From: Candidatus Altiarchaeia archaeon
GTDB taxonomy: Archaea > Altiarchaeota > Altiarchaeia > IMC4 > QMZM01
Direction of reading: 5' to 3'
Assembly (NCBI GenBank): GCA_049299895.1
Contig: JBAQYF010000019.1
Span: 71,709 to 135,708, forward strand
Length of the DNA: 64,000 nt
In this document: piece after piece, positions 2,120 through 52,971 of the stretch
How positions within the stretch are numbered: the first letter of the stretch is position 1
Layout: every line of letters starts with the position of its first letter
Made by a program: the position numbers and the translations under genes
The notes under the pieces: generated by a model
Databases searched by the model: none
What the model was told of the DNA's origin: nothing
What the model saw: only the letters and a program-made list of their open reading frames with translations

Positions 2120-2900
2120 TTGGATTCAGGTCTAATTATATTTAGAGATGAGAAGGATTTTATGACAAAGATAAATTTTTGAGGCATTTTTTTGAACAAA
2201 AAACAATTTATAGATATTAAAACATGAATATAACAAAACATTAATATTATGGAAACACCACTATATAAATATATGCCATCCAGAGAATAAAAGCAAAAAA
2301 TGTGATCTGGCAGGCAAAATGCCGCAAATGGGAAATGCAAAAATGCAGTATGCCTAAAATTGAATATATAAAATTCTTAGACCTTATTGACTTATATCAG
2401 ATAAATTATATTTTTTAAAGACATATAAAATATGAATATTGTATATCCATGTTTTTCAAAGACAATTAATGCTTTAATTGCTAAAATACGTATTATTACG
2501 AGTTTAAATCACTATTAAAAGTTTATTAATACTTCTTTTTCTTTAATAAATATTAATATTATTTTTTTTGCTAAATTTAATTAAAATTTTAATTATAATA
2601 GATTTTTAAATAATTTAATTATTAAAATAGGCTTTTAAAATAAGAATTATTATTCAAAATGAGTTTATAGTTATATTTTACTTTTTTTTATTTAAAATGT
2701 CGTGTAATTTACTTTTTATTTACTTTATCAAATGAATTAATAGATTAAATAAGTTTCTAAAGATTAATCTTACTCCGTTTATCATTTTAAGCATTTTCAA
2801 GTCAAAAACCGCTTAAAACCATTTTTCTTATTTTTCCCCGGCTCTCTAGGACAAGAGCTTTTAAACCGCATCCACAACAATCCTATTCCGGAAAAACAAA
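2120..2900. other. Candidate replication origin (oriC): extremely AT-rich spacer between divergent genes, upstream of orc1/cdc6
   Basis: About 780 bp at well under 25% GC, with no credible ORF. Long A/T runs act as a possible DNA unwinding element. Short repeated words occur (AAATGC x4 at about 2310-2350; TGGAAACACCACT at about 2252). The position immediately 5' of orc1/cdc6 is the usual archaeal origin context. No canonical ORB box was confidently identified. Confidence 0.45.
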
Positions 2901-3123
2901 AAAAATAGGTGATCCACATGATATACCCAACAGTGAAGGAATGCTTGGATGCTTGCAGCAAAACAGGAGTGCTTAAGGTAGAAGGCTTGAGAAACGATGA
3001 ATACGTCCTGAAGGGTGCGGGCTTTACGCCCAGGTACTCAAGGGGCCCGGATAAATTGCCGGTCTCAAGGACACTGGCTAAATCAGCCGTCTTTTTTTCT
3101 CTGGTTCCCATAGTAATACTGCT

Positions 3124-4203
3124 ATGAAACCAGGAGACATCTTAATGGACGGGGAAACCCTCTTCCAGAACGAGAGCGTATTCACCCCTGCATACGTACC
3201 CAAGGACTTCATACACAGAGACTCTGAACTAGGGGAGATAATGCTTGCCTTAAAGCCGGGCCTACGGGGGGTTGCCCCGGTAAATGCCCTGGTCTATGGC
3301 CCCCCCGGAACAGGCAAGACCTCAGCGGTAAAATACGCCTTCGAGGAACTGAAACAGGCAAGTAAGAAGCTTTTGCCGGTATACATAAACTGCGAGGACA
3401 ACTCCACCCCTTATGCCATATTCGCAAAAATTTACGAAGCAGTCTACGGACTCTCCCCCCCAAGCACTGGAAAGCCCATAGAAGACGTAAAAGAGAGGGT
3501 GTTCTCCAGGCTGAAAAAAGAGGACAGAAGTCTTGTAGTAGCACTGGACGAACTAGACCGCCTGGCAGCCGACAGAACCATCGACAGGGTCCTTGTGGAT
3601 TTTCTAAAGGCCCATTCCACGTATGGATATGACAAAATAGGAATCATCGGCATAACCATCAAAGAAGACCTCCTTGCGGGCCTCGACGAAAAAACCCGAA
3701 GCGTATACAACCCCACGAGAATACTATTCCAGAGATACAAGAAGAACGAGATAAAAGACATCCTTGGAAACAGGGCAAGACACGGGTTCTACGACGGAGC
3801 CCTCAGTGACGGCCTGCTTACATACATCGCTGACAAGACCTATGACTCGGGAGACCTGCGCACGGGAATAGACCTCATGAGGAGAAGCGGCCTGCTCGCA
3901 GAAAAAGAGGCAGTCAGGGAGATAACAAAAGAACACGTAGAAAAAGCCCTCGGAAACCTCCCCCGGGAGCGCATACAAGAGGCTGAGGAAAAGCTCCTGG
4001 AAGAGGATAAAAGCCTGCTTGAAAGAATAAAGAAAAAAGAGTCCTGGACCTCGGGAGACCTCTACAAAAACCTGCACACAGAGAAAGAATGCTCCACCAG
4101 GAAATACAACGAGATACTCGCAAAACTGGAGAAGATGAAACTGATCACGACAGAATACCGCACAGGCATCCGCGGACGGAGCAGGGAAATAAAGGCTCTG
4201 TAA
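3124..4203 (+). CDS. cdc6: Orc1/Cdc6 replication initiator (AAA+ ATPase with C-terminal winged helix)
   Basis: Walker A GPPGTGKTS is present. LVVALDELD is Walker B-like. The overall Orc1/Cdc6 architecture is evident over 359 aa. The start could instead be the in-frame ATG at 3145. Confidence 0.9.
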   Translation: MKPGDILMDGETLFQNESVFTPAYVPKDFIHRDSELGEIMLALKPGLRGVAPVNALVYGPPGTGKTSAVKYAFEELKQASKKLLPVYINCEDNSTPYAIFAKIYEAVYGLSPPSTGKPIEDVKERVFSRLKKEDRSLVVALDELDRLAADRTIDRVLVDFLKAHSTYGYDKIGIIGITIKEDLLAGLDEKTRSVYNPTRILFQRYKKNEIKDILGNRARHGFYDGALSDGLLTYIADKTYDSGDLRTGIDLMRRSGLLAEKEAVREITKEHVEKALGNLPRERIQEAEEKLLEEDKSLLERIKKKESWTSGDLYKNLHTEKECSTRKYNEILAKLEKMKLITTEYRTGIRGRSREIKAL

Positions 4204-12057: not shown

Positions 12058-12880
12058 TTGAGAGTAATCTTCTTTCTCTTCAGGGGAACCTTGCTGCTCT
12101 ACATATCTTCTGATTATGTCCTCTGTTACGCCGTCTCCAACGGTCCCTATGTATCCCCCATCACTCCAAAACTCTGCTCCCCAAAGCGTTTTCCTAACCT
12201 CGGAAAACGCTCAAAAAGCATACGGGCAGATACGCTTTTCATCACCTGCATCACTCTGGACGGGGCATACCGGGGAGCAGCCCCAACGAAGTGGTTTTCA
12301 TGCTTTTAACGAGGCTGTCGGCTGGTTTCTTGCCTGCGAGCGGAAAAACCTCGATAGATGCGACAGGCTATGACCGAAGACATGCCAGCAAACACTATGT
12401 GAAAAGATGCAAAATGCAGTTGCAGAGCATGAAAACAACCTACTTGGTGGATACTGAATCACTGGCCATACTTGGAGTTCACACCACCGTAACCCGCAAA
12501 CACGACACCAAAATACTGCTGCCTGTCGTCAGGCAGGCAGAAGAACATTATTTTATAGAAAGCGTCCGCGCGGACAAAGGATACGATGACCAAAAAATAC
12601 GCAACACCCTGCGTGAGGCGGGCATACGCCCGCTCATAAAACACCGGGAATTCAAGCCTTTGGACAAGGCACACAACGCCCGCATGAAAAAAGAGGACTA
12701 CAACCAAAGAGCCATGAGCGAATCAGTAAACAGCATGACCAAACGCAAGCACGGAGACACACTACACACCAAAACTTACTGGACACAATTCAAAGAAATA
12801 CGCCTAAAAGCCATAACCCACAACATCGAAAGATGCATAAAAACAATGCATCAAATAAGGAATTCAATCAAGCTAATAAT
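12058..12880 (+). pseudogene. IS4/IS5-like DDE transposase, disrupted by at least two frameshifts
   Basis: Transposase-like segments are spread over three + strand frames: 12058-12309, 12116-12373, and 12291 to about 12870. Typical DDE_Tnp_1 pieces are present (IDATGYD, ADKGYDD, KHREFKP...HNARMKK). The 3' part of ORF 12291-13214 is a shadow of the opposite-strand ATPase. Confidence 0.5.
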
Positions 12881-12940
12881 TTTTAATTTTAATTCCTTCT
12901 TGGGGGAGTATGCCGTATTCGTGGACGAAATGTCCATTTT

Positions 12941-14194
12941 TTACATCATATACTTCCACAGCGGCACATATTCTATTTCTAATCCGTCTCTTGTCTCCTT
13001 TTTTTCCAGGTCTTTTGTTACGACGAGCAGATTTTTTGCATCCAAGGTTTTTGCTGCCTGCACGTTTTTTGTTATATCTGACTGGGGGTTTTCAGAGTAT
13101 TTGACTTCTATCGGGGTTTTGTCTTTTGTGATGAAGTCGATCTCGCCATGTTTTCTCCAGAAGTTTTCAGCCCCCGATCTCTCGGCTACTGCGTTTTCTG
13201 CTAGTTTGGTATAAATTCCCTGATAGTCTGTTTCGTTTTCGAGGGCTGATGCGGCGAGCGTCGTTGTGGTCAGGTATGCTTTTTTTGCTTTTCTCGTCCC
13301 TGCTGCCGCGCTTCCCGTATGGTTGTAGAGTAGTTTTATCAGGAAGGCTTTCTCAAGGTATTTTACGTATTTTGAAGCCGTCTGATACGTTACCCCGAGG
13401 TTTGATGCAAGGTTGCGGTATTCTATCATCATGCCGGGGTTTTTTGCTATCTGTCTGAATATTTCTGCGAGGACGTCTGGTTCTGCGGCATCGTACGTCT
13501 TTGGTATGTCCCCATATATTATTTTTTCGGTTATGCTTCTTACGTATTTTCTTACCTTGTCGTAGTCTGCCTCGTTGATTATTTCCGGGAATCCTCCCCG
13601 GATAAGATAGTTTACAAGCTCTTTTTTGAGGATATCTTTTTGTATTACTGTATCCTTTATTTCTATTCCCTTGAAGTAGAGATATTCCTGATAATTCAGC
13701 GGTTTTAGCTGGAAGTCATATATTCTGCCTGCGAGGCTTTCCTGGGCTTTTCGAATGTTTACGCCTGCCGACCCTGAGACGACGAATTTTATTCCTTTAT
13801 CGAGGTCGTAATATCTCTTGAGTATTATCTGCCAGTCTCTTACATGGCTTATCTCGTCAAGGAAAATGTATACATTCCTCAGGTCCTCTCTGAGTATACT
13901 CTCCTCGTAGGCCTGGATCAGTTTTTCTACTGCATCAGGATCTTTTGCAAAAATCTCGTCAAAGGAGAAGTACATAATCCTCAGGGGATTCGTCTTTTCC
14001 AGCAGGCGGTCTATGAACTGGTGCATGAGAACAGTCTTCCCCACTCTGCGTAGACCGGTAATACATAAGATTTGCTTGTCTTCTTGGTATCGGAGAACTA
14101 CTTCTAAAAGCCGCCTTTCCTTTGGAGGGCTCTGGAAAGCCTTTGAACCGCTCCACCAGGGGTTCTGCCTTACAAGATAATCAACAAGTTCCAT
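12941..14194 (-). CDS. AAA+ superfamily ATPase (COG1373 / DUF4143 type)
   Basis: 417 aa. Walker A GLRRVGKT. Architecture typical of the archaeal 'predicted ATPase (AAA+)' proteins often found next to mobile elements. Its promoter region 14195-14290 is very AT-rich. Confidence 0.75.
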   Translation of the reverse strand: MELVDYLVRQNPWWSGSKAFQSPPKERRLLEVVLRYQEDKQILCITGLRRVGKTVLMHQFIDRLLEKTNPLRIMYFSFDEIFAKDPDAVEKLIQAYEESILREDLRNVYIFLDEISHVRDWQIILKRYYDLDKGIKFVVSGSAGVNIRKAQESLAGRIYDFQLKPLNYQEYLYFKGIEIKDTVIQKDILKKELVNYLIRGGFPEIINEADYDKVRKYVRSITEKIIYGDIPKTYDAAEPDVLAEIFRQIAKNPGMMIEYRNLASNLGVTYQTASKYVKYLEKAFLIKLLYNHTGSAAAGTRKAKKAYLTTTTLAASALENETDYQGIYTKLAENAVAERSGAENFWRKHGEIDFITKDKTPIEVKYSENPQSDITKNVQAAKTLDAKNLLVVTKDLEKKETRDGLEIEYVPLWKYMM

Positions 14195-19220: not shown

Positions 19221-20837
19221 TTATGCACCCTCTTTTTCAGGCAGCGCCTTTACGGCCTTGGACTTCTGCGCCCCAGACCGGGATAAGAATGACACGATGA
19301 GGCCCAGGGCAACGAGTGCCATCAGACCCTCCAGACCCATTATCAAAGGAGATACGCTCCCAGAGGATTGCCTGGCCGAATACTCCTGCCCTGAAAGAAC
19401 GTTCACATCGACGTCCGATAAAACGATCTGATCGACATTGCTGTTCGTCTCTTTATACTGCAGCCGGACCGTCAATGGGATCGTCCCGGACGACGCGTTT
19501 TTATTAACCGTTATCTCGTAGTCTTCTGTGACCGTCGCATCCGAACCAAGGTTCCCGACGTAGGATTCCGCAGGCAGGCTCACCGCATAGTTTTCCGTCG
19601 GCAGCAACCCGACGCTGAGGAACTTTACCTCGGCATAACCCTTGTTGACGACGCTTAAAGTGACGCGGCCCGTAGTCCCGGGGGCAAGGAGATCGCTCCT
19701 TTCCAGGAAGAGTTGCAACTCCGGCTTACCGTCCAGAGCAAGGCCGATGGTCTTCTTAACGGCGTACTTGACCCCTGCGGCATCGAAGTATTCTATCGTA
19801 AGAGGTATCTCGTAAGCCTTTACGTCGGCCTGCGAATCCACCAAAAGCCGGAAGGAAACGTCCTCCTTCCCGTGTTTTCCTATGTCCCCGATGAAGCGCT
19901 CGGACGAACCGATAGGAGTAAAGGGACTAGACAACTGGGCAGTAACGCTCACGTCATTTGCCTGCGCGCTTCCGAGGTTTTCCAGGGATACCGTGACGTT
20001 CACAGCAGTCCCCGGGCTTGCGCTCGTATACGAGACGTCCGATACCTTGAAGTCCGCATCGCTCCTCTGAACGTCGATACTCACGGGAAGATTCTCCTTC
20101 ATGGAATTCCCGGAGATATCCGAATAATCCATCAACAGGGAAAAAGAGCATACCCCAACATTAGAAGGCTTGATGTCATACTCCAGGCGGAAATCCTGCC
20201 CGCGGGAAACGTCCCCGACAAACACCTTGGACGAACCGATCACGGATGCGCACGCGGCCTGGGCCGGATCAGGGCCAAGCGTCGCAGAAACGCCCTTTGC
20301 CCCGTCCTGAGTCGAACCGGTGATGACCAATTTACCCGCGGAATCCTTGGAGAAAACATCCTTCACAACCGCTATCTGGAAGTTCGCACTCACATAGACC
20401 CTCACTGGAAAATCCCAGACAGTCTCCTGATCGTTCTCAAGCTTCCCTGAACTGTCATACCCGTCGTAATTGATCCTGACCTGTATGTTATGCAAGCCTA
20501 TGTACGCGTCCTTTGAAACGGTCAACGTCGAAGATACCGTCTTGATGGAGTAGGGCTCCATCTTCCCAAGATCCCACTTCTTATTGACCGCGATGCTCCC
20601 GGTCTCGGGAACAGACAACTGGACATCCTCTGCCGCCTGAGGCCCCACGTTCCTGATAACTATCTGCAGCACCCCGGAATCGCCAGGTTTCAGGTTCGAA
20701 TCCACGTGCGTCAGATCGTAGTCCAGCACGACGTTCGTCGGGCTGACGCTCTTATCATCGGCAGCATAAGCAGTCATGCTCGATAATACAAACAAGATCG
20801 CCAAAAATATTCCAAAAAAGTTCCGTTTATTTTCCAT
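19221..20837 (-). CDS. Secreted, C-terminally membrane-anchored beta-sandwich repeat surface protein (COG1361 / CARDB-like), paralog 1
   Basis: Signal peptide MENKRNFFGIFLAILFVLSSMTAYA. Repeated approximately 100-aa beta-rich units. C-terminal TM (LIMGLEGLMALVALGLIVSFL) plus a basic tail. Clear paralog of 24178-25749. Confidence 0.6.
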   Translation of the reverse strand: MENKRNFFGIFLAILFVLSSMTAYAADDKSVSPTNVVLDYDLTHVDSNLKPGDSGVLQIVIRNVGPQAAEDVQLSVPETGSIAVNKKWDLGKMEPYSIKTVSSTLTVSKDAYIGLHNIQVRINYDGYDSSGKLENDQETVWDFPVRVYVSANFQIAVVKDVFSKDSAGKLVITGSTQDGAKGVSATLGPDPAQAACASVIGSSKVFVGDVSRGQDFRLEYDIKPSNVGVCSFSLLMDYSDISGNSMKENLPVSIDVQRSDADFKVSDVSYTSASPGTAVNVTVSLENLGSAQANDVSVTAQLSSPFTPIGSSERFIGDIGKHGKEDVSFRLLVDSQADVKAYEIPLTIEYFDAAGVKYAVKKTIGLALDGKPELQLFLERSDLLAPGTTGRVTLSVVNKGYAEVKFLSVGLLPTENYAVSLPAESYVGNLGSDATVTEDYEITVNKNASSGTIPLTVRLQYKETNSNVDQIVLSDVDVNVLSGQEYSARQSSGSVSPLIMGLEGLMALVALGLIVSFLSRSGAQKSKAVKALPEKEGA

Positions 20838-20843
20838 TTTTAT

Positions 20844-20893
20844 AGTTCAACTGTAAAATAGTTCAATATTTGAACTGTTATTTAGTTGAACTA
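20844..20893. promoter_or_regulatory. Operator-like array of AGTTCAA(C/T) half-sites (four copies, two forming the palindrome AGTTCAAtatTTGAACT) in the promoter of the COG1361-marR-hlyD-MFS cluster
   Basis: Sequence tAGTTCAACtgtaaaatAGTTCAAtatTTGAACTgttatttAGTTGAACta lies immediately 5' of the 20837 start codon on the minus strand. Confidence 0.4.
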
Positions 20894-21072
20894 ATTATCC
20901 GCACTAGAAGTTTATAAATAAGAAAAAAAGATCAGATGGTTCACATAATATACCCATAACAGGTTTTATGCGAAGAAAACTTCGCATAAAAACTAGTTAT
21001 ATGAAATTTCAGTTTTGGCTTGTTTTCTTCTTTTTCCGGCGATATATATGCGAAAAAGCCGCTATTCCTATT

Positions 21073-21300
21073 ATGAGAGGCGATAAAATCCAAACCTTTA
21101 CGGCTGTCTTGCATAAAGAAGAAGACATGTATGTCGCCGAATGTCCCGAGGTTGGCACGGTCAGCCAGGGAGAGACCATAGAAGAGGCAGTAAGCAATCT
21201 TAAAGAAGCTACCGAGCTTTATCTCTGTGAATTTCCCCTAAAAGAAAAGACCAAGACCTTGATGACGACTTTCGAGGTCGCCTACAGTGCCAGCGCTTAG
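21073..21300 (+). CDS. hicB: HicB-family antitoxin (UPF0150 / RNase H-like fold)
   Basis: MRGDKIQTFTAVLHKEEDMYVAECPEVGTVSQGETIEEAVSNLKEATELYL is typical of HicB. It is immediately followed by the HicA toxin. The perfect palindrome TTATGCGAAGaaaaCTTCGCATAA at 20966-20989 lies about 85 bp upstream. Confidence 0.65.
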   Translation: MRGDKIQTFTAVLHKEEDMYVAECPEVGTVSQGETIEEAVSNLKEATELYLCEFPLKEKTKTLMTTFEVAYSASA

Positions 21301-21517
21301 AAAAGTTTCAGGAGAAAAGGCCATTAAGATTCTATGCAACAAACTGGGCTTCCAAGTAACAGGCAGAACAGGAAGCCACGTACGACTATCTAAAATGACA
21401 CCAGACGGAAAAATAGGAACCGTCGTACCCATGCACAACGAATTAAAGATCGGAACACTCAAAAGCGTACTAAAACTGGCGAAGATCGACGAAGAAGAAT
21501 TCTCAAAATATTTATAA
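21287..21517 (+). CDS. hicA: HicA-family mRNA interferase toxin (YcfA-like)
   Basis: 76 aa. ...KAIKILCNKLGFQVTGRTGSHVRLSK... is the HicA dsRBD-like motif. It overlaps the hicB stop. Confidence 0.7.
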   Translation: MPALRKVSGEKAIKILCNKLGFQVTGRTGSHVRLSKMTPDGKIGTVVPMHNELKIGTLKSVLKLAKIDEEEFSKYL

Positions 21518-21574
21518 GAAGCCAAAATCGAAACTCTCGCGAGCGCGCTCGGTGCTGATCGCACTCACATAACA

Positions 21575-21646
21575 CGCATTTAACGGCTCACTCGCTTCGC
21601 TCGTTCGGCCCAAATTCTGGCTACGGCCAGAACTTCGTTAAATGCG
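21575..21646. repeat. Intergenic repeat copy A (core GCTCGTTCGGCC...CAAATTC...CTTCG) bounded by a perfect 11-bp inverted repeat CGCATTTAACG / CGTTAAATGCG
   Basis: Direct reading. The inner arms ATTTAAC / GTTAAAT fit the RYYYAAC / GTTRRRY integron attC core consensus. An inner hairpin AATTCTGG-ctacgg-CCAGAACT is present. Confidence 0.5.
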
Positions 21647-21737
21647 GGACGTTATACGCAATTCAAAAATCCTGTCGTTTTCCGTCGACCGACGGTTTAT
21701 TAACTCGTAAGACCAATCTTATCATAGGTGATTTGAA

Positions 21738-22007
21738 ATGATAAACGTCGATTTTACCAAGATGAGCTCCAAAGGCCAGATAGTCATACCTCAGGAGATG
21801 AGAAAAGGGCTAGATGTTGGAGACCGGTTCATCATAATCCGCAGAGACAACGAGATCATATTGAAACCAGCAGACGATCTTGAAGAGAATTTCTTGGAAG
21901 ACCTAAATTTCGCAAAAAAGACCCTGGCGTCGCTCGATAAGTACGGCAAGGGCAAGTTCAAGGAGATTGAGGGCAAAGATTTCCTAAAAGAACTTGAGAA
22001 ATGGTAA
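21738..22007 (+). CDS. AbrB/MazE/SpoVT-type antitoxin
   Basis: The N-terminus (SKGQIVIPQEMRKGLDVGDRFIIIRRDNEIILKP) is a swapped-hairpin AbrB-type domain. Its stop overlaps the start of the RelE-like gene. Confidence 0.65.
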   Translation: MINVDFTKMSSKGQIVIPQEMRKGLDVGDRFIIIRRDNEIILKPADDLEENFLEDLNFAKKTLASLDKYGKGKFKEIEGKDFLKELEKW

Positions 22008-22249
22008 CAGTCGCGTACGACAAAAGGTTCGAGCGGACCATCAAAAAAATAAAAGACGAGGGACTAAAGGAAAGAGTTAAGAAGCAGATAGCAAAGGTGG
22101 TAGAAAACCCTGAAACGGGAAAACCGATGCGCTTCATCCGAAAAGACACACGAGAAGTATACGTTCCACCATTTCGTCTATCGTATGCATACCTGAAAGA
22201 AGAGGACAAAATAATATTCCTCGAATTATACCACAAAGACGAACAATAG
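22001..22249 (+). CDS. relE: RelE/ParE-family type II toxin
   Basis: 82 aa. ...PETGKPMRFIRKDTREVYVPPFRLSYAYLKEEDKIIFLELYHKDEQ is the RelE/StbE-like fold pattern. Paired with the upstream AbrB-type antitoxin. Confidence 0.65.
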   Translation: MVTVAYDKRFERTIKKIKDEGLKERVKKQIAKVVENPETGKPMRFIRKDTREVYVPPFRLSYAYLKEEDKIIFLELYHKDEQ

Positions 22250-22420
22250 GAACAGGATTTTTGAACTTCTCGTAGCCTACGGCTCCTCGACCTTTACAGG
22301 GCGCATAACAAAGGACGCTGTCTCATAATTCGGTTTTTTATCATTTTAATTTAAAAGGGTTTTTTAAGCCGTATAAACTGCAATTCGTAACGTGATTTTT
22401 AATTATGGGACAGCCTGAGG

Positions 22421-22487
22421 CATTTAAACGGCTCGTTCGGCCTGCGGCCTCACTTGGCTCAAATCCCCTTAGGGGACTTCGTTAAAT
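22421..22487. repeat. Intergenic repeat copy B (CATTTAAACGGCTCGTTCGGCC...GGCTCAAATCCCC...CTTCGTTAAAT)
   Basis: Shares GGCTCGTTCGGCC, a CAAATCC motif and CTTCGTTAAAT with copy A. Terminal ATTTAAAC / GTTAAAT is an imperfect inverted repeat. It lies directly 3' of the relE cassette. Confidence 0.5.
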
Positions 22488-22551
22488 CACATACATTATA
22501 TTCAATAAATCTGGAGCCCTCAGCATTCAGAAAAATATTTAATATCCAAAG

Positions 22552-23244
22552 TTGTATTATAAGATAAGATATATGATGGAAAATAAAAATTTGGGTAATA
22601 AGATTTTTCAGATCATACTAATTATCGAAGTAATTGCAGTCGCTTTGGTGATTATCTTTGATTTCTTTCTTCCGACATTGGTTATCCTTGCTCTGGCTGC
22701 TTTTTCCCTTTTAATTCGTAAAGAAAACATTAAAGCGCTCGGGTTCAAAAAAATAGACAAGCCATTAAAAATGGTTGGAACTATATTTCTGCTCTCTCTT
22801 ATATGGTCGGTTATCTTGTTGGCATTTATTATGCCGGTTCTTAATCATTTACTTGGAACGACACAGGACTTATCTGCTTTTGAAGACCTGAAAGGCAATA
22901 TTGGAAAACTGATCCCTCTTTTGTTGCTTTCATGGACCCTGGCAGCCTTAGGTGAAGAGACTGCGTATAGGGGTTATCTGCAAAAAATTCTTTATGATCT
23001 TTTTGGAAAAAATAAAATAGGAATTGTTTTAACAATCGCAATCTCTTCGATTCTATTTGGTCTTGCACATACCGAACAAGGCATTATCGGAGTTGTTTTA
23101 ACTACATTTGATGCGGTCATTCTCAGCTTGGTGAAGAGGCATTATAATGACAATTTATGGGCACCAGTATTTTTTCATGGGATAAACAACACTGTCGGTA
23201 TGATAACCTTCTTTTTTATTGGACCAATTTATGGATTTTGGTGA
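22552..23244 (+). CDS. CPBP-family intramembrane metalloprotease (CAAX protease / Abi domain)
   Basis: The EExxxR (EETAYRG), FxxxH (LFGLAHTEQG) and FFHGINN motifs of the CPBP family are present, across 6-7 TM helices. Confidence 0.75.
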   Translation: MYYKIRYMMENKNLGNKIFQIILIIEVIAVALVIIFDFFLPTLVILALAAFSLLIRKENIKALGFKKIDKPLKMVGTIFLLSLIWSVILLAFIMPVLNHLLGTTQDLSAFEDLKGNIGKLIPLLLLSWTLAALGEETAYRGYLQKILYDLFGKNKIGIVLTIAISSILFGLAHTEQGIIGVVLTTFDAVILSLVKRHYNDNLWAPVFFHGINNTVGMITFFFIGPIYGFW

Positions 23245-23342
23245 TAATTTAAACTATTGAAGAGTTCCGGGCTCCAGATTTACTCTGAAATTTCCCTTCA
23301 GGACGTTGCACTAAATTTCAGCCTGCAGGGAATAAAACAGCG

Positions 23343-23410
23343 AGTTGAACGGCTCGTTCGGCTGCGCTTCGCTCGGTCCAAATCCTCGCTTCGGTCGGAC
23401 TACGCATAAT
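23343..23410. repeat. Intergenic repeat copy C (GAGTTGAACGGCTCGTTCGGCTGCGCTTCGCTCGGTCCAAATCCTCGCTTCGGTCGGAC)
   Basis: Shares AACGGCTCGTTCGGC, CCAAATCC and CTTCGG with copies A and B. The right end is degenerate. It lies directly 3' of the CPBP gene. Confidence 0.45.
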
Positions 23411-23485
23411 CCGGTATGTTTAGCGCAATATAAGCACTGCCCAAAAGAAATGTTTATATATTTATTAAAAAACTAATTCATTATC

Positions 23486-23752
23486 ATGAAACTTAATGAC
23501 CAGACGATTATTTCCCTTGTTGCGGGAGCTTGTTTGCTTGGTTTAGTCGTAGTTCTTAAAAATGTGTTATTGATTACGCCGGAGATCTTATCAAGAGACG
23601 TTATCCTTTATATTATCTGCTATACCGGTTTCATAGCTTCTTTTTCTGCAAAAGATAAAACTAAAAAACAATTCAAACAGGATACGCCTTTATTCTGGAG
23701 CATATTGATCGTACTGATAACGCTGGCAATTATTGCGGTGTATGCTTTATAG
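23486..23752 (+). CDS. Small membrane protein (3 TM), hypothetical
   Basis: 88-aa ORF with three hydrophobic helices. It is the last + strand unit before the strand switch. Confidence 0.35.
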   Translation: MKLNDQTIISLVAGACLLGLVVVLKNVLLITPEILSRDVILYIICYTGFIASFSAKDKTKKQFKQDTPLFWSILIVLITLAIIAVYAL

Positions 23753-24181
23753 ACCGGACGGGCTTGCATCTTCCTCCTTCTGGAACAGGGTCAGCCCTTG
23801 GTCGCAGCTTTTGACCGAGATGTTCTTTACAAGGCAGAGCAGGCGCTCTTTTACTTCCAGCAGGAATTCCTCCCCTTTGGAAGTGAGTGCGTAGGTCTTC
23901 TTCCCGGGTTTTCCTTCGGTATACGCCCATTCGCCTTTTATGTATTCCTTGTCTTCGAGCCACTGGAGGACGGGATATATCTTTCCCGGGCTTATTTTGA
24001 CGTTGTATGTCTTCTCAAAGAACTTGATTATGTCGTAGCCGTGGGTGTGGCCCTTCGAGATCAGGGAGAGGCACTGCACTATGGCAAAGGATTTCAGGAA
24101 GTGCTCGTCTATCCACGCAAGCAGGGATCCTTCGTCGATCCCGGCGCATTCACCGCCTTTTGAAGCTGCCGGTTCTTTCAT
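23747..24181 (-). CDS. PadR-family transcriptional regulator
   Basis: PadR winged helix (...YDIIKFFEKTYNVKISPGKIYPVLQWLEDKEYIKGEW...). 4-bp overlap with the upstream COG1361 gene. Confidence 0.8.
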   Translation of the reverse strand: MKEPAASKGGECAGIDEGSLLAWIDEHFLKSFAIVQCLSLISKGHTHGYDIIKFFEKTYNVKISPGKIYPVLQWLEDKEYIKGEWAYTEGKPGKKTYALTSKGEEFLLEVKERLLCLVKNISVKSCDQGLTLFQKEEDASPSGL

Positions 24182-25749
24182 TCCTCTTTATCTTTGTTCT
24201 TTTTCTTGCCTTTGGTTAGAGTATATGCGCCTAGCAATAAAACCAAAACAATAACCCCTGCAAGGACATACGTCATAGTGTTGCCGCTTTCTCCTGCCTG
24301 GACGCTTACTCGCGCAGTCTTGGAGAATACGAGCACTACGCCGTCTTTCGTGCAGCGTATCTCGACAGGAAGGAGGTATTCCTTGACCTTCGCATCGCCG
24401 TCTACTGTGAAACGGATCACTGCGTCTCCTTTCTCGCCCTTGTCCAGGTCGCCTATGTATTCGCTTTTGTCGACGAATTCAAAGGGCTGCTCGCTCTTTT
24501 TCAGGATCCATACTGTCACTGAATCGCATTTGCTTCCCTTGTTTTCTACGTTCACCCGGAGTTCCGCGGAGGCTCCCGCCTTTGCCTGCGTGACCTCTGA
24601 GGACAGGTTGAAGTCCGGGTAGTCCATGACGTCTACTGGAACAATTATCGAAGCATTCTTGTCCGCGTTGTCCGTCTCGTAGCTCAGGGAGAATACCTGC
24701 CCGGTTCTTGCAGGCACTGCGTCCTTGTTTATGTTCGCGTAAAAGGACATTATGCTGTTTGCCCCGGATTTTATCGTTCCAAGATCCTGGGCCTGGACAT
24801 ATGATTTGCTGTTCTCGAAGGGCGCCTGGGGAACATAGACCACGCGCACGTTCTTTATGTCCGTCGTTCCCTGGTTGTCTATCTTGATCTTCAATTGGAC
24901 GTCTGCGTCGCCTGCATGTATCTCTTTTGGGTCGGTCTCGGAAACGGTTATCGATATCTTCGTGTCTCCGACGACTTGCAGCCCAAGAGGCAGGGTCGCG
25001 CTTGCAGGGTTGTGGTTCTTGTCCTTGTAGCTTATGCTCAAGGGGAGAGAGTATGCGCCTGTCGGCAGGCTCTTGTCCAGGTATACCGCGTACTCCAATT
25101 CCTTTTTGCCCCCTGACGCGATATCCCCGAGGAACTGTTTCTCTGAGCCTATCACTTTGATGAGGGCGCTGCCGGTTCCAAGCTGGCCTTCGGAGTCATA
25201 CGCCTCCGCTATTCCCATGTTCTTTATCCTGACTTTGAGGCTTATCGTATCCCCGGGCCGGGGAACGGCATTTGTATTTATTGCTTCGACCACGAATATT
25301 GATTCGCCTTTGACGTTGACGTTTATCTCCCATGCATCGCTCTTGTCGTTCTCCGCTTTTCCGCGCACGTTGTAGCCGTCGTAGGCGGCGGTTACCCGGA
25401 TTGTGTGCAGGCCGATCTGCGCGTTGTCTGCGATGTTGAATTTAGTGGATATGGTTTTGACTTCCCCGGGGAGCATCGTACCCACGTATTCTCTTTTGGA
25501 TATTTTTATGTCTCCTGCGTCGGGTATGTATATCTCCACGTGTTCGGCATTCTGTCCGCCTATGTTCTTTATGACCAACGACATCACTCCCGAGTCTCCG
25601 GGCTGCAGGTTCGTCTGTATCTGGCTGAGCGTGTAGTCCAGCGCGAGCTTCGTCTCGGTCACCGACTGCGCGTATCCCGCAGATACAAAAAGCATCAACA
25701 ATACGCCGTAGAGCATTATCTTTCCCGTTGTTTTATCCGTCTTATCCAT
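24178..25749 (-). CDS. Secreted, C-terminally anchored beta-sandwich repeat surface protein (COG1361 / CARDB-like), paralog 2
   Basis: Signal peptide and C-terminal TM plus a lysine-rich tail. Alignable to paralog 1 (LDYTLSQIQTNLQPGDSGVMSLVIKNIGGQNAEHVEIYIPDAGDI versus LDYDLTHVDSNLKPGDSGVLQIVIRNVGPQAAEDVQLSVPETGSI). Confidence 0.6.
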   Translation of the reverse strand: MDKTDKTTGKIMLYGVLLMLFVSAGYAQSVTETKLALDYTLSQIQTNLQPGDSGVMSLVIKNIGGQNAEHVEIYIPDAGDIKISKREYVGTMLPGEVKTISTKFNIADNAQIGLHTIRVTAAYDGYNVRGKAENDKSDAWEINVNVKGESIFVVEAINTNAVPRPGDTISLKVRIKNMGIAEAYDSEGQLGTGSALIKVIGSEKQFLGDIASGGKKELEYAVYLDKSLPTGAYSLPLSISYKDKNHNPASATLPLGLQVVGDTKISITVSETDPKEIHAGDADVQLKIKIDNQGTTDIKNVRVVYVPQAPFENSKSYVQAQDLGTIKSGANSIMSFYANINKDAVPARTGQVFSLSYETDNADKNASIIVPVDVMDYPDFNLSSEVTQAKAGASAELRVNVENKGSKCDSVTVWILKKSEQPFEFVDKSEYIGDLDKGEKGDAVIRFTVDGDAKVKEYLLPVEIRCTKDGVVLVFSKTARVSVQAGESGNTMTYVLAGVIVLVLLLGAYTLTKGKKKNKDKEE

Positions 25750-46703: not shown

Positions 46704-47432
46704 TTACGTCTTTATCATGAATCTCACCGCCAGAAACGGCTCCATATTCTGGTGCGGCACTCCTTCCCCGGTGTTGTTGATCTCTATGCTGTAGTCGGAC
46801 ATGTTGAGATCCGGGGGCGGAGCAGCATATAGATTTGTCCGGGTTATTTTGCCCGGGACTGCACCTGTCGGATCGGCGGTAGTTCCGGTATCAGACCCAA
46901 CCAACCAGGCATCGTGCTTGTGGACAGGCATCTGTTCCAGGGTTATGTTAATTGTCTCGTTTCCGCCCCTGGAGCCCTGGGCTCGGTTGATAAGCCCGTC
47001 TCCCTGGCCTTTTCCGATGGGCACCCTGCTACGCATGTCAGGCAACTTGAAAGTAGTGGCACCGTTTCCCCCATACAGGATGCCGATATAAAAATATAAG
47101 GCAGGATAATCCACTATGTTCAGCTCCTGGCCCTCGCACGCAAGCCACCCGGAAGGCACGGTATCCCCGGCAAACATCCTGATCTCCCCGGTATAGACCG
47201 ACGGCCAGCTTGTCCGGCAATCCCCTGCCAGGCATATCCCCGGGGAGGATAACCTGCTGCCCGCGCCTGATATATTTATGTCCCCAGCAAGGCTGACACC
47301 GCCGGACGCATTGACCCCTCCGTTTTTTATTATGACGCTACCGCTCTGGGCCATGAGCATCGCGGAAATCATAAACACTGCGACTACGGACGCAATTTCC
47401 AAACCTCCTGAAGCCTTAAAATTGAATTCCAC
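46704..47432 (-). CDS. Phage tail collar domain protein (MdpB / COG4675-like), paralog 3 of 3, N-terminal TM or signal
   Basis: GEIRMFAGDTVPSGWLACEGQELNIVDYPALYFYIGILYGGNGATTFKLPDMRSRVPIGKGQGDGL...GGNETINITLEQMPVHKHDA matches the tail-collar (PF07484) consensus almost position by position. Confidence 0.7.
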   Translation of the reverse strand: MEFNFKASGGLEIASVVAVFMISAMLMAQSGSVIIKNGGVNASGGVSLAGDINISGAGSRLSSPGICLAGDCRTSWPSVYTGEIRMFAGDTVPSGWLACEGQELNIVDYPALYFYIGILYGGNGATTFKLPDMRSRVPIGKGQGDGLINRAQGSRGGNETINITLEQMPVHKHDAWLVGSDTGTTADPTGAVPGKITRTNLYAAPPPDLNMSDYSIEINNTGEGVPHQNMEPFLAVRFMIKT

Positions 47433-47435
47433 TTT

Positions 47436-48173
47436 TTAAGTTTTTATGATATACGCGATCACCAAGTATGGTTGCATGTTCTCGTGCGAATACCCACTTC
47501 CGGCATTTAGTGTTTCAATAGAACCGTTGGCCATGGATAAGGAGCCCTCCAAGAGAGAATACCGATTGCGGCTGGGATCTATTCCAAAAACATTCCCGCT
47601 TGGAGTACTCGAATCCCCGTTCCCCGCAGCATAAGCCTTCAGCATCCCGGTGTGAGTGTGAAGCGGCATCTGGCTTAAGGTCAAGTTCTCCGACTCGTTG
47701 CCCCCCATCTCGCCAAGGCTTCTATCGGTCAGCCCGTCTCCCTGACCTCCCCCAATAGGAGATCTACCCCTCAGGTCGGGCAGCTTGAAAGTAGTATCAC
47801 CGTCTCCGCCGTATGCGATCCCGATCACGGCGTACAATGCAGGGTAGTCAGCGATGTTCAGCTCCTGGCCCTCGCACGCAAGCCACCCGGAAGGCACATT
47901 ATTCCGTGCAAACATCCTTACTTCTCCAGTTAGGCCCCCGGACCAGGTTGTCCTGCATGTCCCGGCGATGCACAGCTCGGGCGCATATACCTTTGACCCC
48001 GACCCGTAAACGTTTATGTCTCCGGCCGTCTCAATGCTGTCTGAAAGCAACACCTGCCCGTCGCGCACTGTAAAGTTCCCGCTGCAAATCAATGCAGATA
48101 CGAGACAGAACAATAAGACAAATGGAACGATATGCATTTTCTTCAACTTACGCGATTTGTTTTTCAATTTCAC
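47436..48173 (-). CDS. Phage tail collar domain protein (MdpB-like), paralog 2
   Basis: GEVRMFARNNVPSGWLACEGQELNIADYPALYAVIGIAYGGDGDTTFKLPDLRGRSPIGGGQGDGL...NESENLTLSQMPLHTHT. Confidence 0.7.
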   Translation of the reverse strand: MKLKNKSRKLKKMHIVPFVLLFCLVSALICSGNFTVRDGQVLLSDSIETAGDINVYGSGSKVYAPELCIAGTCRTTWSGGLTGEVRMFARNNVPSGWLACEGQELNIADYPALYAVIGIAYGGDGDTTFKLPDLRGRSPIGGGQGDGLTDRSLGEMGGNESENLTLSQMPLHTHTGMLKAYAAGNGDSSTPSGNVFGIDPSRNRYSLLEGSLSMANGSIETLNAGSGYSHENMQPYLVIAYIIKT

Positions 48174-48908
48174 TCAGGTTTTGATCATGTAATTCAATAC
48201 GACATAAGGTTTCATATTATTATGAGGCAGCCCCCCTCCAACAGCAGAAATGTTGGCTCCGGTTGAGGACATGTTTACAAGAACGGTCGTGTTGCTGCTG
48301 TAGCGGAGTGCTCCACCCTGGCTTCCTGGCACGTTCCCGCCAGGGTTATCTCTGTTGGAGGTGCTACTACCGATTGAATGGGCGCTGTGATTATGCACAG
48401 GCAGGTTGACTGCCGAGAGGGTCACGCTCTCGTTCCCTCCGGAAACGCCAAGATCCCACTCCGTCAGACCCTCGCCCTGTCCGGCCGCTATCGGCGCCCT
48501 GCCCCGGAAGTCCGGTATCTTGAACGACGACACGCCGTCTCCGCCATACGTTGTACCTATCACGACAAAGAGATCCGGGTAAGCGGAGGGATCAAGCGAC
48601 GTTCCGTTGCAAAAGAGCCATCCCACAGGCTCATTAGATCCCGCATATAGACGTATCTCGCCAGTGTTGGCCCCGGACGAATCCCAAGCAGTCGTGCAGC
48701 TTCCCGCCAGGCATACCTTCGACGCATATATCTTTGCGCCCGCGCCGGACAAGTTGAGCAAGGAATTTGCCTCTATGCCTCCGGACACGTTAAGGGTTCC
48801 GTTGCGCAGATTAACCTCCCAACTCTGAACGAGATATGATACCAATATCCCTGATGCCGCAGCGAGCAGCAAGTAATATTTCAGCCTGCTTTGACGGAAT
48901 TTACTCAT
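48174..48908 (-). CDS. Phage tail collar domain protein (MdpB-like), paralog 1
   Basis: GEIRLYAGSNEPVGWLFCNGTSLDPSAYPDLFVVIGTTYGGDGVSSFKIPDFRGRAPIAAGQGEGL...NESVTLSAVNLPVHNHSAH. Confidence 0.7.
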   Translation of the reverse strand: MSKFRQSRLKYYLLLAAASGILVSYLVQSWEVNLRNGTLNVSGGIEANSLLNLSGAGAKIYASKVCLAGSCTTAWDSSGANTGEIRLYAGSNEPVGWLFCNGTSLDPSAYPDLFVVIGTTYGGDGVSSFKIPDFRGRAPIAAGQGEGLTEWDLGVSGGNESVTLSAVNLPVHNHSAHSIGSSTSNRDNPGGNVPGSQGGALRYSSNTTVLVNMSSTGANISAVGGGLPHNNMKPYVVLNYMIKT

Positions 48909-48947
48909 TTTCTAAGTAGATAATAATTATATGGGAGTCAATAAATT

Positions 48948-50987: not shown

Positions 50988-51021
50988 AGACCATCTTCGC
51001 ATGATAAATGGATAAAGTAGC

Positions 51022-52923: not shown

Positions 52924-52971
52924 TATTTTTTTCGTTGGTTTACAAATCCCGGCATGCTTGGATCAATGCGA

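Follow-up and report, generated by a model that had tools for sequence, protein, structure and literature searches.

Positions 20953–23429 of the window, by which we mean the whole 64,000-nucleotide stretch analyzed here from an Altiarchaeota chromosome, hold a small array of gene cassettes, all on the plus strand. This array is probably a partly decayed cassette array built on the integron principle and an orphan of a system linked to a XerA-type recombinase. We class it as a CALIN (orphan array) of a Xer-type integron-like system; we write "integron-like" rather than integron in the strict sense because the recombinase linked to this site family is of the XerA type and has no IntI-specific domain. 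The original prediction of an integron-like array or CALIN is upheld by structured sites with compensatory changes, by the pairing of cassettes with their own sites, by the occurrence of cassettes in different contexts, and by related arrays that adjoin a recombinase gene and an attI-like site.

The cassette array and its sites

The array lies between surface-protein loci and has a GC content of 38–44% vs. about 52% in the flanks. The four plus-strand units and three repeat copies of the original prediction are real and were correctly placed. Cassette 1 (20997–21651) carries hicB (21073–21300; a weak Pfam HicB match, under the Pfam cut-off) and hicA (21287–21517; a clear Pfam HicA match) and has an inverted repeat of its own (21007–21024/21516–21533; 83% complementary). 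Cassette 2 (21652–22495) carries genes for an abrB/mazE-type antitoxin (21738–22007; Pfam AbrB/MazE) and a parE/relE toxin (22001–22249; Pfam ParE/RelE), with a perfect cassette-specific inverted repeat of 14 nt (21662–21675/22252–22265; 100% complementary). Cassette 3 (22496–23418) carries a gene for a CPBP/Rce1-like intramembrane protease (22573–23244; Pfam CPBP/Rce1), a 14-nt inverted repeat that is likewise perfect (22506–22519/23269–23282; 100% complementary) and a conserved accessory hairpin module at about 23283–23329. The terminal unit (23430–23752, plus strand) contains a small membrane ORF (23486–23752; no Pfam family) and overlaps a convergent PadR gene; a covariance model search of the 64 kb yielded no site downstream of it, and a search for a pairing partner of its 5' sequence found none. 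The unit represents either a cassette that was cut short or chromosomal flank. As had been noted, the window has no tyrosine recombinase: none turned up among its approximately 40 large ORFs.

In addition to the three copies, a short fourth site lies ahead of hicBA and had been missed. This attI-like site, attC0 (20953–21007, plus strand), was identified by a scan for R and L boxes, which found only two sites in the 64 kb, attC0 and site A, and by alignment to related contigs. It comprises an R''-like CCCATAAC (20953–20960), an 11-6-11 palindrome formed by TTTTATGCGAA (20964–20974), GAAAAC and TTCGCATAAAA (20981–20991), then ACTA, a G (20996) followed by the inferred crossover point, and the arm TTATATGAAAT (20997–21007).

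A covariance model based on 15 members of the family places sites A, B and C, all on the plus strand, at 21558–21662, 22402–22506 and 23323–23429 (93, 84 and 79 bits, respectively; E 1e-24 to 1e-20), each ending in ...GTTAxxxxxAAT. It found nothing else in the rest of the 64-kb window and had no matches in 670 kb of unrelated DNA. The extent of the copies, initially put at about 70–90 bp, has to be corrected: the conserved unit is longer, about 105 nt.

Site A is an intact attC-like site (E 7e-25), also found by the R/L-box scan. It has R'' CACATAAC (21566–21573), an L box that is a perfect 11-bp inverted repeat (21575–21585/21636–21646), the spacer GGAC, and the R' G at 21651, followed by the arm TTATACGCAAT (21652–21662). 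The perfect repeat had been described correctly and misassigned as the R''/R' pair: it is the inner L box, and the true, crossover-proximal R box lies outside it (ATAAC, 21569–21573; GTTAT, 21651–21655).

Site B is damaged. An AT-rich insert of about 109 nt (22311–22419, plus strand) divides it between R'' and L'', so that the R'' belonging to cassette 2, GCGCATAAC (22301–22309), is pushed away from L'', which begins at 22420; R' reads ATTAT, not GTTAT (A at 22495), and is followed by the arm TTATATTCAAT (22496–22506). The insert resembles what is left of an IS end or a MITE-like element: at its right end, AATTATGGGACAGCCTGAG corresponds to AATTATGAGACAGCCTGAG at the same position of another site (contig L064), where the matching sequence adjoins an opposite-strand ORF that appears transposase-like by eye. 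In contig L023, which represents the same locus in another sample, 22278–22412 are missing. Site C is degenerate, as had been noted, its L-box arms now pairing poorly; it has R'' GAATAAAAC (23330–23338), the R' G at 23418 and the arm TTTAGCGCAAT (23419–23429). The interruption of site B and the degeneration of site C suggest decay of the array, which may be inactive because of this damage.

Structure and distribution of the site family

Single-strand folding, proposed originally as a check, gave a clear hairpin for site A (z = -3.2 on both strands), no clear one for site B (z = -2.0), and for site C nothing better than shuffled sequences (z = +0.3). What establishes the site structure is covariation within the family, not the folding of single copies. 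In an independent MAFFT alignment of 15 sites, 88% of the cells were paired, vs. 20–46% in slid controls, and 12 pairs showed compensatory changes. In an alignment of 24 sites, 90% were paired, 26 of the 30 pairs showed compensatory changes and all 11 L-box pairs covaried, this alignment having been fitted to the model and being hence biased toward structure.

The sites are about 105 nt long, or 170–190 nt with the outer stem and the accessory hairpin. The outer stem (10–17 bp) is cassette-specific and encloses the R box, (x)xATAAC ... GTTAxxx, with the core TAAC/GTTA; further inside come the L box, some 11 bp long and in most cases carrying a single bulged base, and a three-way junction. Nineteen copies were found in the window, ten metagenome contigs and L023, in one orientation per contig. 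The arrays comprise one to four cassettes per contig and occupy several chromosomal places; those with no recombinase gene in the available sequence follow enolase (L077) or lie beside ilvE (L075) or hydrogenase-type genes (L130). Their cargo is of the kind usual in integron cassettes: toxin-antitoxin pairs, GmrSD, GNAT, Fic, and an AAA_5 (McrB-type) ATPase with a partner ORF.

Cassette boundaries and mobility

Cassettes of this family are complementary to their own ends. In 12 of 14 cassettes, the first 40 nt or so pair best with the region before the cassette's own downstream site; the duplex between own 5' and 3' ends has a mean of -17.2 kcal/mol vs. -9.0 +/- 2.3 kcal/mol for non-own pairs (14 cassettes), and in all seven complete cassettes the circularized own junction folds 3–15 kcal/mol better than the array junction. 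All three cassettes of the window rank first: the own-junction duplex has -16.7 kcal/mol in cassette 1 (rank 1 of 14) and -17.9 kcal/mol in cassette 2, and in cassette 3 the own junction has -31.5 kcal/mol vs. -23.1 kcal/mol for the array junction. Pairing of this kind can be understood only if the DNA passes through a circular intermediate.

Cassettes have also been shuffled between arrays: in the window, the abrB-relE cassette comes after hicBA, whereas in contig L079 it is preceded by a HEPN/nucleotidyltransferase cassette. One cassette start (TTAATCTC...) stands behind three different site types, and the crossover is therefore confined to ACGTTA. We infer that recombination would take place at G|TT, on the border of an 11-nt arm (TTATAyGCAAT) that is similar to half of an archaeal dif site; this arm, lying after the crossover, would therefore be part of the next cassette, and excision as a circle would restore a perfect long hairpin.

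Recombinase genes in related contigs

Contig L117 contains a site of the same family (113 bits) and a divergent tyrosine recombinase fragment, with a palindromic site about 65 nt from the recombinase start codon. The same layout with one to four verified cassettes is seen in L148, L153 (L154 is a duplicate) and the distant L150, all of them, like L117, metagenomic. An 11-6-11 palindrome lies 40–70 nt upstream of the tyrosine recombinase gene in six related contigs; it is present in 6/6 contigs of the Altiarchaeota type having upstream sequence. The attC0 site aligns with this palindromic site (L148, L153, L155, L117) and is near-identical to that of L156, upstream flank included. A downstream site was not detected in the 2 kb or so available for L156 and L157, and the contexts of the homologues P0003 and P0005 contained no array. 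The L148 recombinase gene has an apparent stop or frameshift near its start.

Six recombinase sequences were typed, leaving out those of L153, L155, L156 and L157. The best NCBIfam match was recomb_XerA_Arch in five of them, P0008 scoring slightly higher on integrase_gron; the latter model was below cut-off in all six and matched full-length homologues in two stretches, skipping the insertion. P0001 gives an unbroken alignment with Pyrococcus abyssi XerA, while about 54 IntI residues have no counterpart when it is aligned to VchIntIA; its next relatives (50–58% identity) are Xer-like proteins of DPANN archaea. The two homologues compared with solved structures are XerA-type, without the IntI-specific insertion. 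Sequence comparison thus assigns the full-length homologues to the XerA type; the L117 fragment stops short of the insertion region, so the absence is seen in the homologues. In a single 11-nt comparison, 9/11 positions of the site A arm TTATACGCAAT agree with the left arm of P. abyssi dif (PMC2958812) taken as its reverse complement.

The arrays adjoin the recombinase genes, and adjacency is all that links the two. The catalyst would be a XerA-family tyrosine recombinase lacking the IntI-specific insertion, and we infer that it would act on a folded strand and do so at present. In related contigs the divergent recombinase gene adjoins the 11-6-11 palindromic attI-like site that opens the array; the window has kept that site (20953–21007) but not the gene, and its orphan array is probably held in place by the two toxin-antitoxin cassettes.

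Alternative explanations

The XerA-type gene is set among housekeeping genes, and the array-linked recombinase may be the housekeeping XerA of these archaea. The palindrome could then be the chromosomal dif, with the cassettes being minimal mobile elements that pile up there, comparable to IMEX and Acinetobacter pdif modules, and no dedicated capture platform. A palindrome of the perfect 11-6-11 core type and an R' arm similar to that of P. abyssi dif agree with this, and there are precedents: XerCD acts on the folded hairpin of the CTX phage, and pdif modules carry toxin-antitoxin or resistance genes. We nevertheless regard this explanation as unlikely. The inferred crossover lies 3–4 nt outside the palindrome and not at the arm boundaries; arrays of the family occur at several unrelated places without a recombinase in the available sequence (L077, L075, L130 and the window); attC0 is about 18 kb from a probable replication origin, where a terminus dif would hardly be expected; and in Thermococcales dif does not adjoin xerA (PMC2958812).

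Somewhat more doubtful still is an ordinary integron CALIN, in which a canonical IntI (with its additional domain), encoded at another locus or by other organisms, would act in trans on plain attC sites and the XerA-like neighbor would be incidental. Archaeal CALINs are known already and most archaeal integrons have no detectable IntI (PMC9668308); integrons share the R-box core TAAC/GTTA and the logic of the cassettes, and one experimentally validated archaeal attC has the identical boxes GTATAAC/GTTATAC. However, the insertion-less recombinase or a close homologue, divergently oriented, heads arrays in four independent contexts, with a conserved site between its gene and the first cassette, and the spacer geometry is unlike that of nine validated archaeal attCs. 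Moreover, Altiarchaeota genomes are absent from the IntegronFinder survey tables, this phylum not being among those in the genome tables of the archaeal integron survey (Ghaly et al. 2022, PMC9668308).

It is very improbable that the repeats are a MITE- or REP-like dispersed family, or a structured RNA element of 3'-UTRs, unrelated to cassette mobility. The family is indeed repeated, structured and intergenic, and one helix has a conserved T-G pair that wobbles on the top strand only, which is compatible with RNA folding. Yet all 24 sites are co-oriented within each contig and lie in arrays or beside small accessory-type ORFs; no dispersed or inverted copies and no terminal inverted repeats with target duplications were seen, one cassette occurs in different arrays with its junction inside the site, and the own-junction complementarity fits only a circular DNA intermediate. 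The MITE reading, offered originally as an alternative, was accordingly rejected.

The other original alternative, stacked tRNA-derived att remnants from serial integration into a tRNA gene, has a negligible probability: its only point is the likeness of GGyyCAAATCC to a T-arm, whereas ARAGORN found no tRNA in the window, Rfam had no match at E <= 1 in 20500–24200, the CAAAT block sits at a helix junction and forms no T-arm, and att duplications would not be expected to show R' pairing with the next R'' in a cassette-specific way.

Comparison with known systems

The array shares with integrons and CALINs (PMC9668308) small ORFs in a common orientation, with an imperfect-palindrome site (boxes xxxTAAC ... 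GTTAxxx) behind each of them; a crossover at G|TT, which leaves the distal half of R' with the following cassette; a recombinase gene, divergently oriented, and an insertion site heading the array (here, in related contigs); cargo rich in toxin-antitoxin, defense and acetyltransferase genes; and the frequency of orphan arrays. It differs in the recombinase, which has no IntI-specific insertion of the kind that defines integron integrases, in the length of its sites, with their three-way junction and cassette-specific outer stems, and in having an 11-6-11 palindrome as the attI-like site. Canonical attC sites have R-L spacers of 5 and 6 nt and two bulged bases, whereas these sites have spacers of 1 and 4 nt and a single bulged base, and their L' is a direct, not an inverted, copy of R'.

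Sedentary chromosomal integrons of the Vibrio type (VCR) likewise have highly similar sites within a lineage, a chromosomal location and toxin-antitoxin cassettes, which are thought to stabilize the array; in contrast, the arrays described here are short, lie at several chromosomal places and have no IntI. IMEX elements such as the CTX phage integrate at dif via XerCD. There too, the substrate would be a hairpin that folds to mimic a core site and is exchanged at the boundary of an arm by a Xer-family enzyme lacking the IntI insertion; but IMEX are phages or islands using the host dif at the terminus, not promoter-poor single-gene cassettes, and we know of no IMEX forming a cassette-by-cassette array with swapped half-sites. 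Acinetobacter pdif modules resemble the cassettes in carrying small accessory genes, including toxin-antitoxin pairs, between Xer-type sites in varied contexts; however, pdif sites are plain 28-bp duplexes in alternating orientation on plasmids, and the unit is not known to include an adjoining recombinase gene, whereas the sites of our family are long, structured and uniformly oriented. In the single-recombinase modules XerS/difSL and XerH/difH, which resolve chromosome dimers, the recombinase gene also directly adjoins its own palindromic site; to our knowledge, no gene-cassette arrays are attached to them. The presence of a Xer-type recombinase, and not a classical integron integrase, beside such arrays bears on the origin of integrons.

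Organization of the cassette array

The original prediction placed four consecutive units on the + strand within 20838-23760 of the window, and Pfam searches and ORF calls bear this out. The first unit consists of hicB (21073-21300, a weak match below the Pfam cut-off) and hicA (21287-21517), the second of genes for an AbrB/MazE antitoxin (21738-22007) and a ParE/RelE toxin (22001-22249), and the third of a CPBP/Rce1 protease gene (22573-23244), all found with Pfam, while the fourth is an 88-aa membrane ORF obtained by ORF calling (23486-23752). As had been claimed, one copy of a repeat follows each of the first three units; the attC-like unit measures ~105 nt (sites A, B and C at 21558-21662, 22402-22506 and 23323-23429, respectively), and copy A does contain a perfect 11-bp inverted repeat (21575-21585 / 21636-21646). 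The GC content of this island is 38-44% vs ~52% in the flanks. The window carries the archaeal markers Orc1/Cdc6, archaeosine TGT and TrmB, and all named relatives of the TGT belong to Candidatus Altiarchaeota. Exact-protein look-ups with the window genes returned only short fragments from the same organism.

The pair CGCATTTAACG / CGTTAAATGCG, which had been read as the R''/R' boxes, covaries inside each copy, which makes it an internal stem, the L box. In the metagenomic copy L115a, for instance, the partner of CAGATTTTAACG is CGTAAAATCTG, whereas in the next copy of that array GCGATTTAAGCG goes with CGTTAAATCGC. We also considered this inner pair as the crossover site and rejected it, since L' covaries with L'' of its own copy and not with that of the next copy. 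The R box is the outer pair. Its upstream member reads (x)xATAAC or GATTAAC and its downstream member GTTATAC or GTTAATC; copy A has ATAAC at 21569-21573 and GTTAT at 21651-21655. R' mismatches its own upstream partner but fits that of the following site in the same array. This match between R' and the next R'' is the signature of integron cassettes, in which the distal R' half passes to the following cassette by exchange at G|TT, the crossover inferred here.

Each cassette thus defined has its own site. When the arrays were cut at G|TT and the 3' end of each cassette was joined to its own 5' end, a long continuous hairpin formed in all seven complete cassettes, and these own junctions were 3-15 kcal/mol better than the array junctions (for example, -49.7 vs -37.4 and -31.5 vs -23.1). 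The extra stability comes from R-box matches of 8-10 bp and from outer inverted repeats of 10-17 bp that are specific to each cassette. Those of the window lie at 21662-21675 / 22252-22265 and 22506-22519 / 23269-23282 (both perfect, 14 nt) and at 21007-21024 / 21516-21533 (18 nt, 83%). For 14 cassettes from six contigs we also calculated duplexes between the first 40 nt of the cassette and the 150 nt that precede R'' of the same cassette. The mean was -17.2 kcal/mol for own and -9.0 +/- 2.3 for non-own combinations, the own duplex ranking first in 12 of the 14 cassettes. In circular form, the abrB-relE cassette would have its 3' end joined to TTATACGCAATTCAAAAATCC.

Conservation and structure of the sites

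In a genome collection without the source genome, the pattern AACGGCTCGTTCGGC...CAAATYC was matched 22 times, always by chance and within coding sequence of bacteria, and two scans of viral contigs gave chance matches or nothing. A metagenome scan identified at least 10 genuine family loci among the 120 matches listed, the other 110 being due to chance, and the family must be larger than this. A covariance model built from 15 copies detected 19 copies in the window, in the 10 listed loci and in L023, a contig with the same locus from another sample. Exactly three of these copies lie in the window (93, 84 and 79 bits), and the model had no match in 670 kb of unrelated DNA. Family copies are co-oriented within each contig, with an array spacing of 0.85-4.2 kb.

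RNAalifold applied to a MAFFT alignment failed to recover the L box because of a bulge, and the structure was specified by hand. Its four helices are the R stem, an L stem of 11 bp from which one base bulges, and a pair of hairpins that create a three-way junction. In the MAFFT alignment 88% of the cells are paired and 12 pairs show compensatory changes, while slid controls reach 20-46%. With 24 sites, distant ones included, 90% of the cells are paired (slid controls, 23-49%) and compensatory change is found in 26 of 30 pairs, all 11 of the L box among them, in an alignment that was fitted to the model and is therefore biased toward the specified structure. The TAAC/GTTA pairs are retained in 21-22 of the 24 sites. 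When the three repeats were folded as single strands, as had been proposed, copy A alone was clearly hairpin-like.

Like attC sites, the family combines R''/R' boxes of the RYYYAAC/GTTRRRY type with an L''/L' box in a hairpin-forming imperfect inverted repeat. In most copies a single A bulges from the '' arm, the side on which canonical attC sites carry two extrahelical bases; copy A has no bulge. Nine experimentally validated archaeal attCs, compared by eye, share TAAC...GTTA boxes with the window family, and one of them has the same GTATAAC/GTTATAC boxes. They differ from it in having spacers of 5 and 6 nt, two extra bases on the '' arm and no three-way junction; the corresponding spacers of the window-type family, again by eye, are 1 and 4 nt vs ~5 and 6 nt in canonical sites.

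Head-of-array site and linked recombinases

When the 64-kb window was scanned for stems of 8 bp or more between xAAC and GTTx, only two places came up, namely copy A and, upstream of hicBA, a site of 45 nt at 20956-21000. This fourth, short site, attC0 (20953-21007), reads CCCATAAC AG G TTTTATGCGAA GAAAAC TTCGCATAAAA ACTA G|TTATATGAAAT. Behind its perfect 11-6-11 palindrome comes the junction at which the hicBA cassette begins. The extra base of attC0 is on the arm opposite to that of the bulged A. The start of a CARDB surface-protein gene lies 116 bp away.

Palindromes of the same build were found next to recombinase genes. In metagenome contig L117, where the window's site family scores 113 bits, a tyrosine recombinase gene runs divergently from the array and is cut by the contig end. 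The palindrome lies ~65 nt from the start codon of this gene, and GTTA and the first cassette follow directly behind it. Further contigs were reached through homologues of the L117 fragment. In L148, whose recombinase is 61% identical to this fragment, a near-identical palindrome is followed by a GNAT cassette, and R'' of its site (GCATCTAAC) pairs 9/9 with the cassette start (GTTAGATGC). The recombinase frame of L148 appears to be broken by a stop or frameshift after the first ~18 codons (780-880, MEDSLKKLNLELRLRNFS*), which would be either a pseudogene or an assembly error. In L153/L154, from Altiarchaeales ex4484_2, the palindrome precedes DUF6438 and GmrSD cassettes with perfect R boxes of 9-10 bp and a 14-bp outer stem. 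L155, L156 and L157 also contain the palindrome, that of L156 being nearly identical to attC0 with the upstream flank included; no downstream site was found in L156 and L157 within ~2 kb of sequence.

Altogether, six contigs (L117, L148, L153, L155, L156 and L157) have the conserved palindrome, followed by GTTA, 40-70 nt upstream of their recombinase gene. It stands beside this gene at the head of the array, with the first cassette directly behind it, and would serve as attI. An alignment of the palindromes, attC0 included, shows compensatory changes in the stem, so the window keeps the head-of-array site and has lost the recombinase gene.

The distant contig L150 has four cassettes organized by the same rules (28-38 bits to the covariance model), and its recombinase-plus-array layout shows that the system is not confined to Altiarchaeota. 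This 35.7-kb contig (Ga0401691_0054) is rich in small genes and contains fmt, gatB and many ORFs without any family.

Six recombinase sequences were compared with NCBIfam models. The best match was recomb_XerA_Arch for five of the six, which come from related contigs and not from the window; its cut-off was exceeded by P0003 only, and no arrays were found in the contexts of P0003 and P0005. For P0008, integrase_gron scored slightly above recomb_XerA_Arch, but integrase_gron stayed below its cut-off for all six sequences, and on full-length homologues it matched in two stretches that skip the middle of the model, where the insertion is located. Among solved structures, P. abyssi XerA (4a8e; 166 bits) gives an unbroken alignment with P0001, whereas the alignment of P0001 to Vibrio IntI4 (VchIntIA) splits (residues 6-142 to 41-182 and 154-235 to 237-318), leaving ~54 residues of the Vibrio IntI, IntI-specific domain included, without a counterpart. 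The L117 fragment ends before the insertion region, so that it is the homologues of this fragment in which the insertion is seen to be absent; for L153, L155, L156 and L157, the placement of the recombinase is based on similarity to P0001.

A strict integron integrase is a tyrosine recombinase with the IntI-specific additional domain (in IntegronFinder, PF00589 plus the intI_Cterm profile), and none was found in the window or among the homologues of the array-linked recombinase. Xer-family recombinases are present in the related contigs and not in the window. Judged from these homologous sequences, the recombinase linked to the arrays is of the Xer type and not an IntI. Its adjacency to the arrays in metagenomic contigs suggests that a XerA-type enzyme catalyzes cassette recombination.

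Alternative explanations

A housekeeping XerA with the palindrome as its dif site would agree with the recomb_XerA_Arch matches and with the build of the palindrome, as a Xer core site has two ~11-bp arms and a 6-8-bp center. Xer enzymes cut at arm boundaries, and G|TT lies at the boundary of the R' arm. The arm after the crossover (TTATACGCAAT) agrees with the reverse complement of the left arm of P. abyssi dif (ATTGGATATAA; PMC2958812) at 9 of 11 positions. However, the inferred crossover, at the edge of the R' arm, falls outside the palindrome, and arrays of the family occur at several chromosomal places without a recombinase in the available sequence. In addition, attC0 lies ~18 kb from the probable origin beside orc1/cdc6, which argues weakly against a terminus location. 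We therefore regard the dif reading as unlikely. Xer-exploiting elements and Acinetobacter pdif modules are the nearest mechanistic relatives of the arrays.

An ordinary CALIN served by an unseen IntI leaves the conserved layout of recombinase, palindrome and array unexplained, and we give it little credence.

A reading of the sites as MITE-like repeats fails. The ~109-nt insert inside site B is the only element that is MITE-like in look; the sites themselves lack the terminal inverted repeats with target duplication and the mixed orientations of MITEs, and all 24 are co-oriented with their neighbors, in arrays or beside small accessory-type ORFs. Remnants of tRNA-derived att sites, in which the repeat would match the 3' part of a tRNA gene, were rejected on the evidence of the window, where no tRNA occurs and Rfam, which has no attC family, gave no match at E <= 1.

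The integron-like array that was originally predicted is supported, with corrections. The sites are structured, the cassettes follow own-junction logic, and, as claimed, no tyrosine recombinase occurs among the ~40 large ORFs of the window. With four sites 0.6-0.9 kb apart, the array fits the definition of a CALIN (two or more attC sites separated by less than 4 kb in an integrase-free neighborhood), provided that the sites count as attC. The array system is best filed as an integron kind with a Xer-type recombinase. Our tentative proposal, to which we assign somewhat less than an even chance, is that a "Xer-type integron", a platform for capturing and shuffling cassettes, exists in Altiarchaeota and in one or more distant lineages with small genomes (L150). 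Its integrase would belong to the XerA family, without the I2/IntI-specific insertion, and would act on attC-like sites that are long and folded and on an attI in the form of a dif-like palindrome.

State and cargo of the arrays

Site A has remained intact. In site B, an AT-rich insert of ~109 nt (22311-22419) separates R'' (22301-22309) from L'' (22420 onward), and the crossover G is mutated to A. Sequence matching the right end of the insert occupies the equivalent position of a different site in contig L064 (1-810), where it adjoins an opposite-strand ORF that is transposase-like by eye; the insert may be an insertion sequence or a MITE targeting these sites. In site C the L-box pairing is lost, and the fourth unit has no site of its own. 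The damage to sites B and C, the siteless last unit and the missing recombinase gene point to a decaying orphan array, plausibly kept in place by its two toxin-antitoxin cassettes. Such an array accounts for the low-GC island of toxin-antitoxin and protease genes in the window. L023 lacks window positions 22278-22412; excision of a cassette was rejected for this 135-nt difference because its ends lie away from G|TT.

Cassettes occur in different surroundings. The abrB-relE cassette (start TTATACGCAATTCAAAAATCCTGTCG) lies behind the hicBA cassette in the window and behind a HEPN/nucleotidyltransferase cassette with a different site in L079. A second cassette start, TTAATCTCAATTGAGCCC, is found behind three different site types in L115, L077 and L079, which confines the exchange point to the common ACGTTA.

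Across all arrays, the cargo is typical of integron cassettes. It includes HicAB, AbrB-RelE, HEPN-nucleotidyltransferase and Fic, as well as two GmrSD, an AAA_5 (McrB-type) ATPase with a partner ORF, two GNAT, a racemase, DUF1801 and the CPBP protease. The ATPase and its partner share one 4.2-kb cassette, which, like the two GmrSD cassettes, holds a whole defense system (L077 2419-6211, L153 253-1923 and L112 339-2039). The related arrays act as small defense islands.

Other loci in the window

In the 1-kb intergenic region 2120-3123, upstream of orc1/cdc6 (3124-4203), the GC content drops to 10-15%. The region is enclosed by an inverted pair of 22 nt (2272-2293 / 3091-3112), which includes CCAGAGAA / TTCTCTGG, and probably represents a replication origin. 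Between the start of the CARDB gene and attC0 lies a palindrome (20843-20893) with 24-nt arms, TAGTTCAACTGTAAAATAGTTCAA / TTGAACTGTTATTTAGTTGAACTA, that are 83% complementary; it could be an operator for the neighboring MarR- or PadR-type regulators. An ORF with a DDE_Tnp_1 transposase domain overlaps an AAA_14/DUF4143 ATPase gene on the opposite strand (12291-13214, 12941-14194), and only one of the two would be real. On the - strand, 46704-63912 contains a 3646-aa ORF (52972-63912), then ORFs of 633 aa and 696 aa without Pfam match, and three adjacent ORFs of ~245 aa, one with a phage tail-collar domain (46704-48908). This region may be a large surface or contractile-system locus.

Relation to known integrons

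Archaeal integrons and CALINs were described in 2022 from 75 genomes with 539 attC sites and six IntI, all six defined by the additional domain, and the genome tables of this IntegronFinder survey list no Altiarchaeota (PMC9668308). A classification of tyrosine recombinases describes the insertion as "not fully conserved" in an integron-like subgroup and gives no cassette arrays for such proteins (PMC8138268). According to PMC4792948 and PMC7790495, the insertion (I2 helix region) defines integron integrases and reads the extrahelical bases of the folded attC, and integrases are held to have arisen from a Xer-like enzyme by its gain. A literature search found no description of a Xer-type integron, which does not prove that none exists.

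If our proposal is true, cassette recombination is possible without the insertion that is viewed as the key innovation of integron integrases. Many archaeal "CALINs" might then have unrecognized integrases, and surveys that require an IntI profile (e.g. IntegronFinder) would call such systems orphan arrays or miss them. The system would be a living relative of the integron ancestor or an independent invention, its insertion-free recombinase representing a possible pre-insertion stage or a convergent solution. A natural insertion-free system with full cassette logic would make the origin of integrons directly testable.
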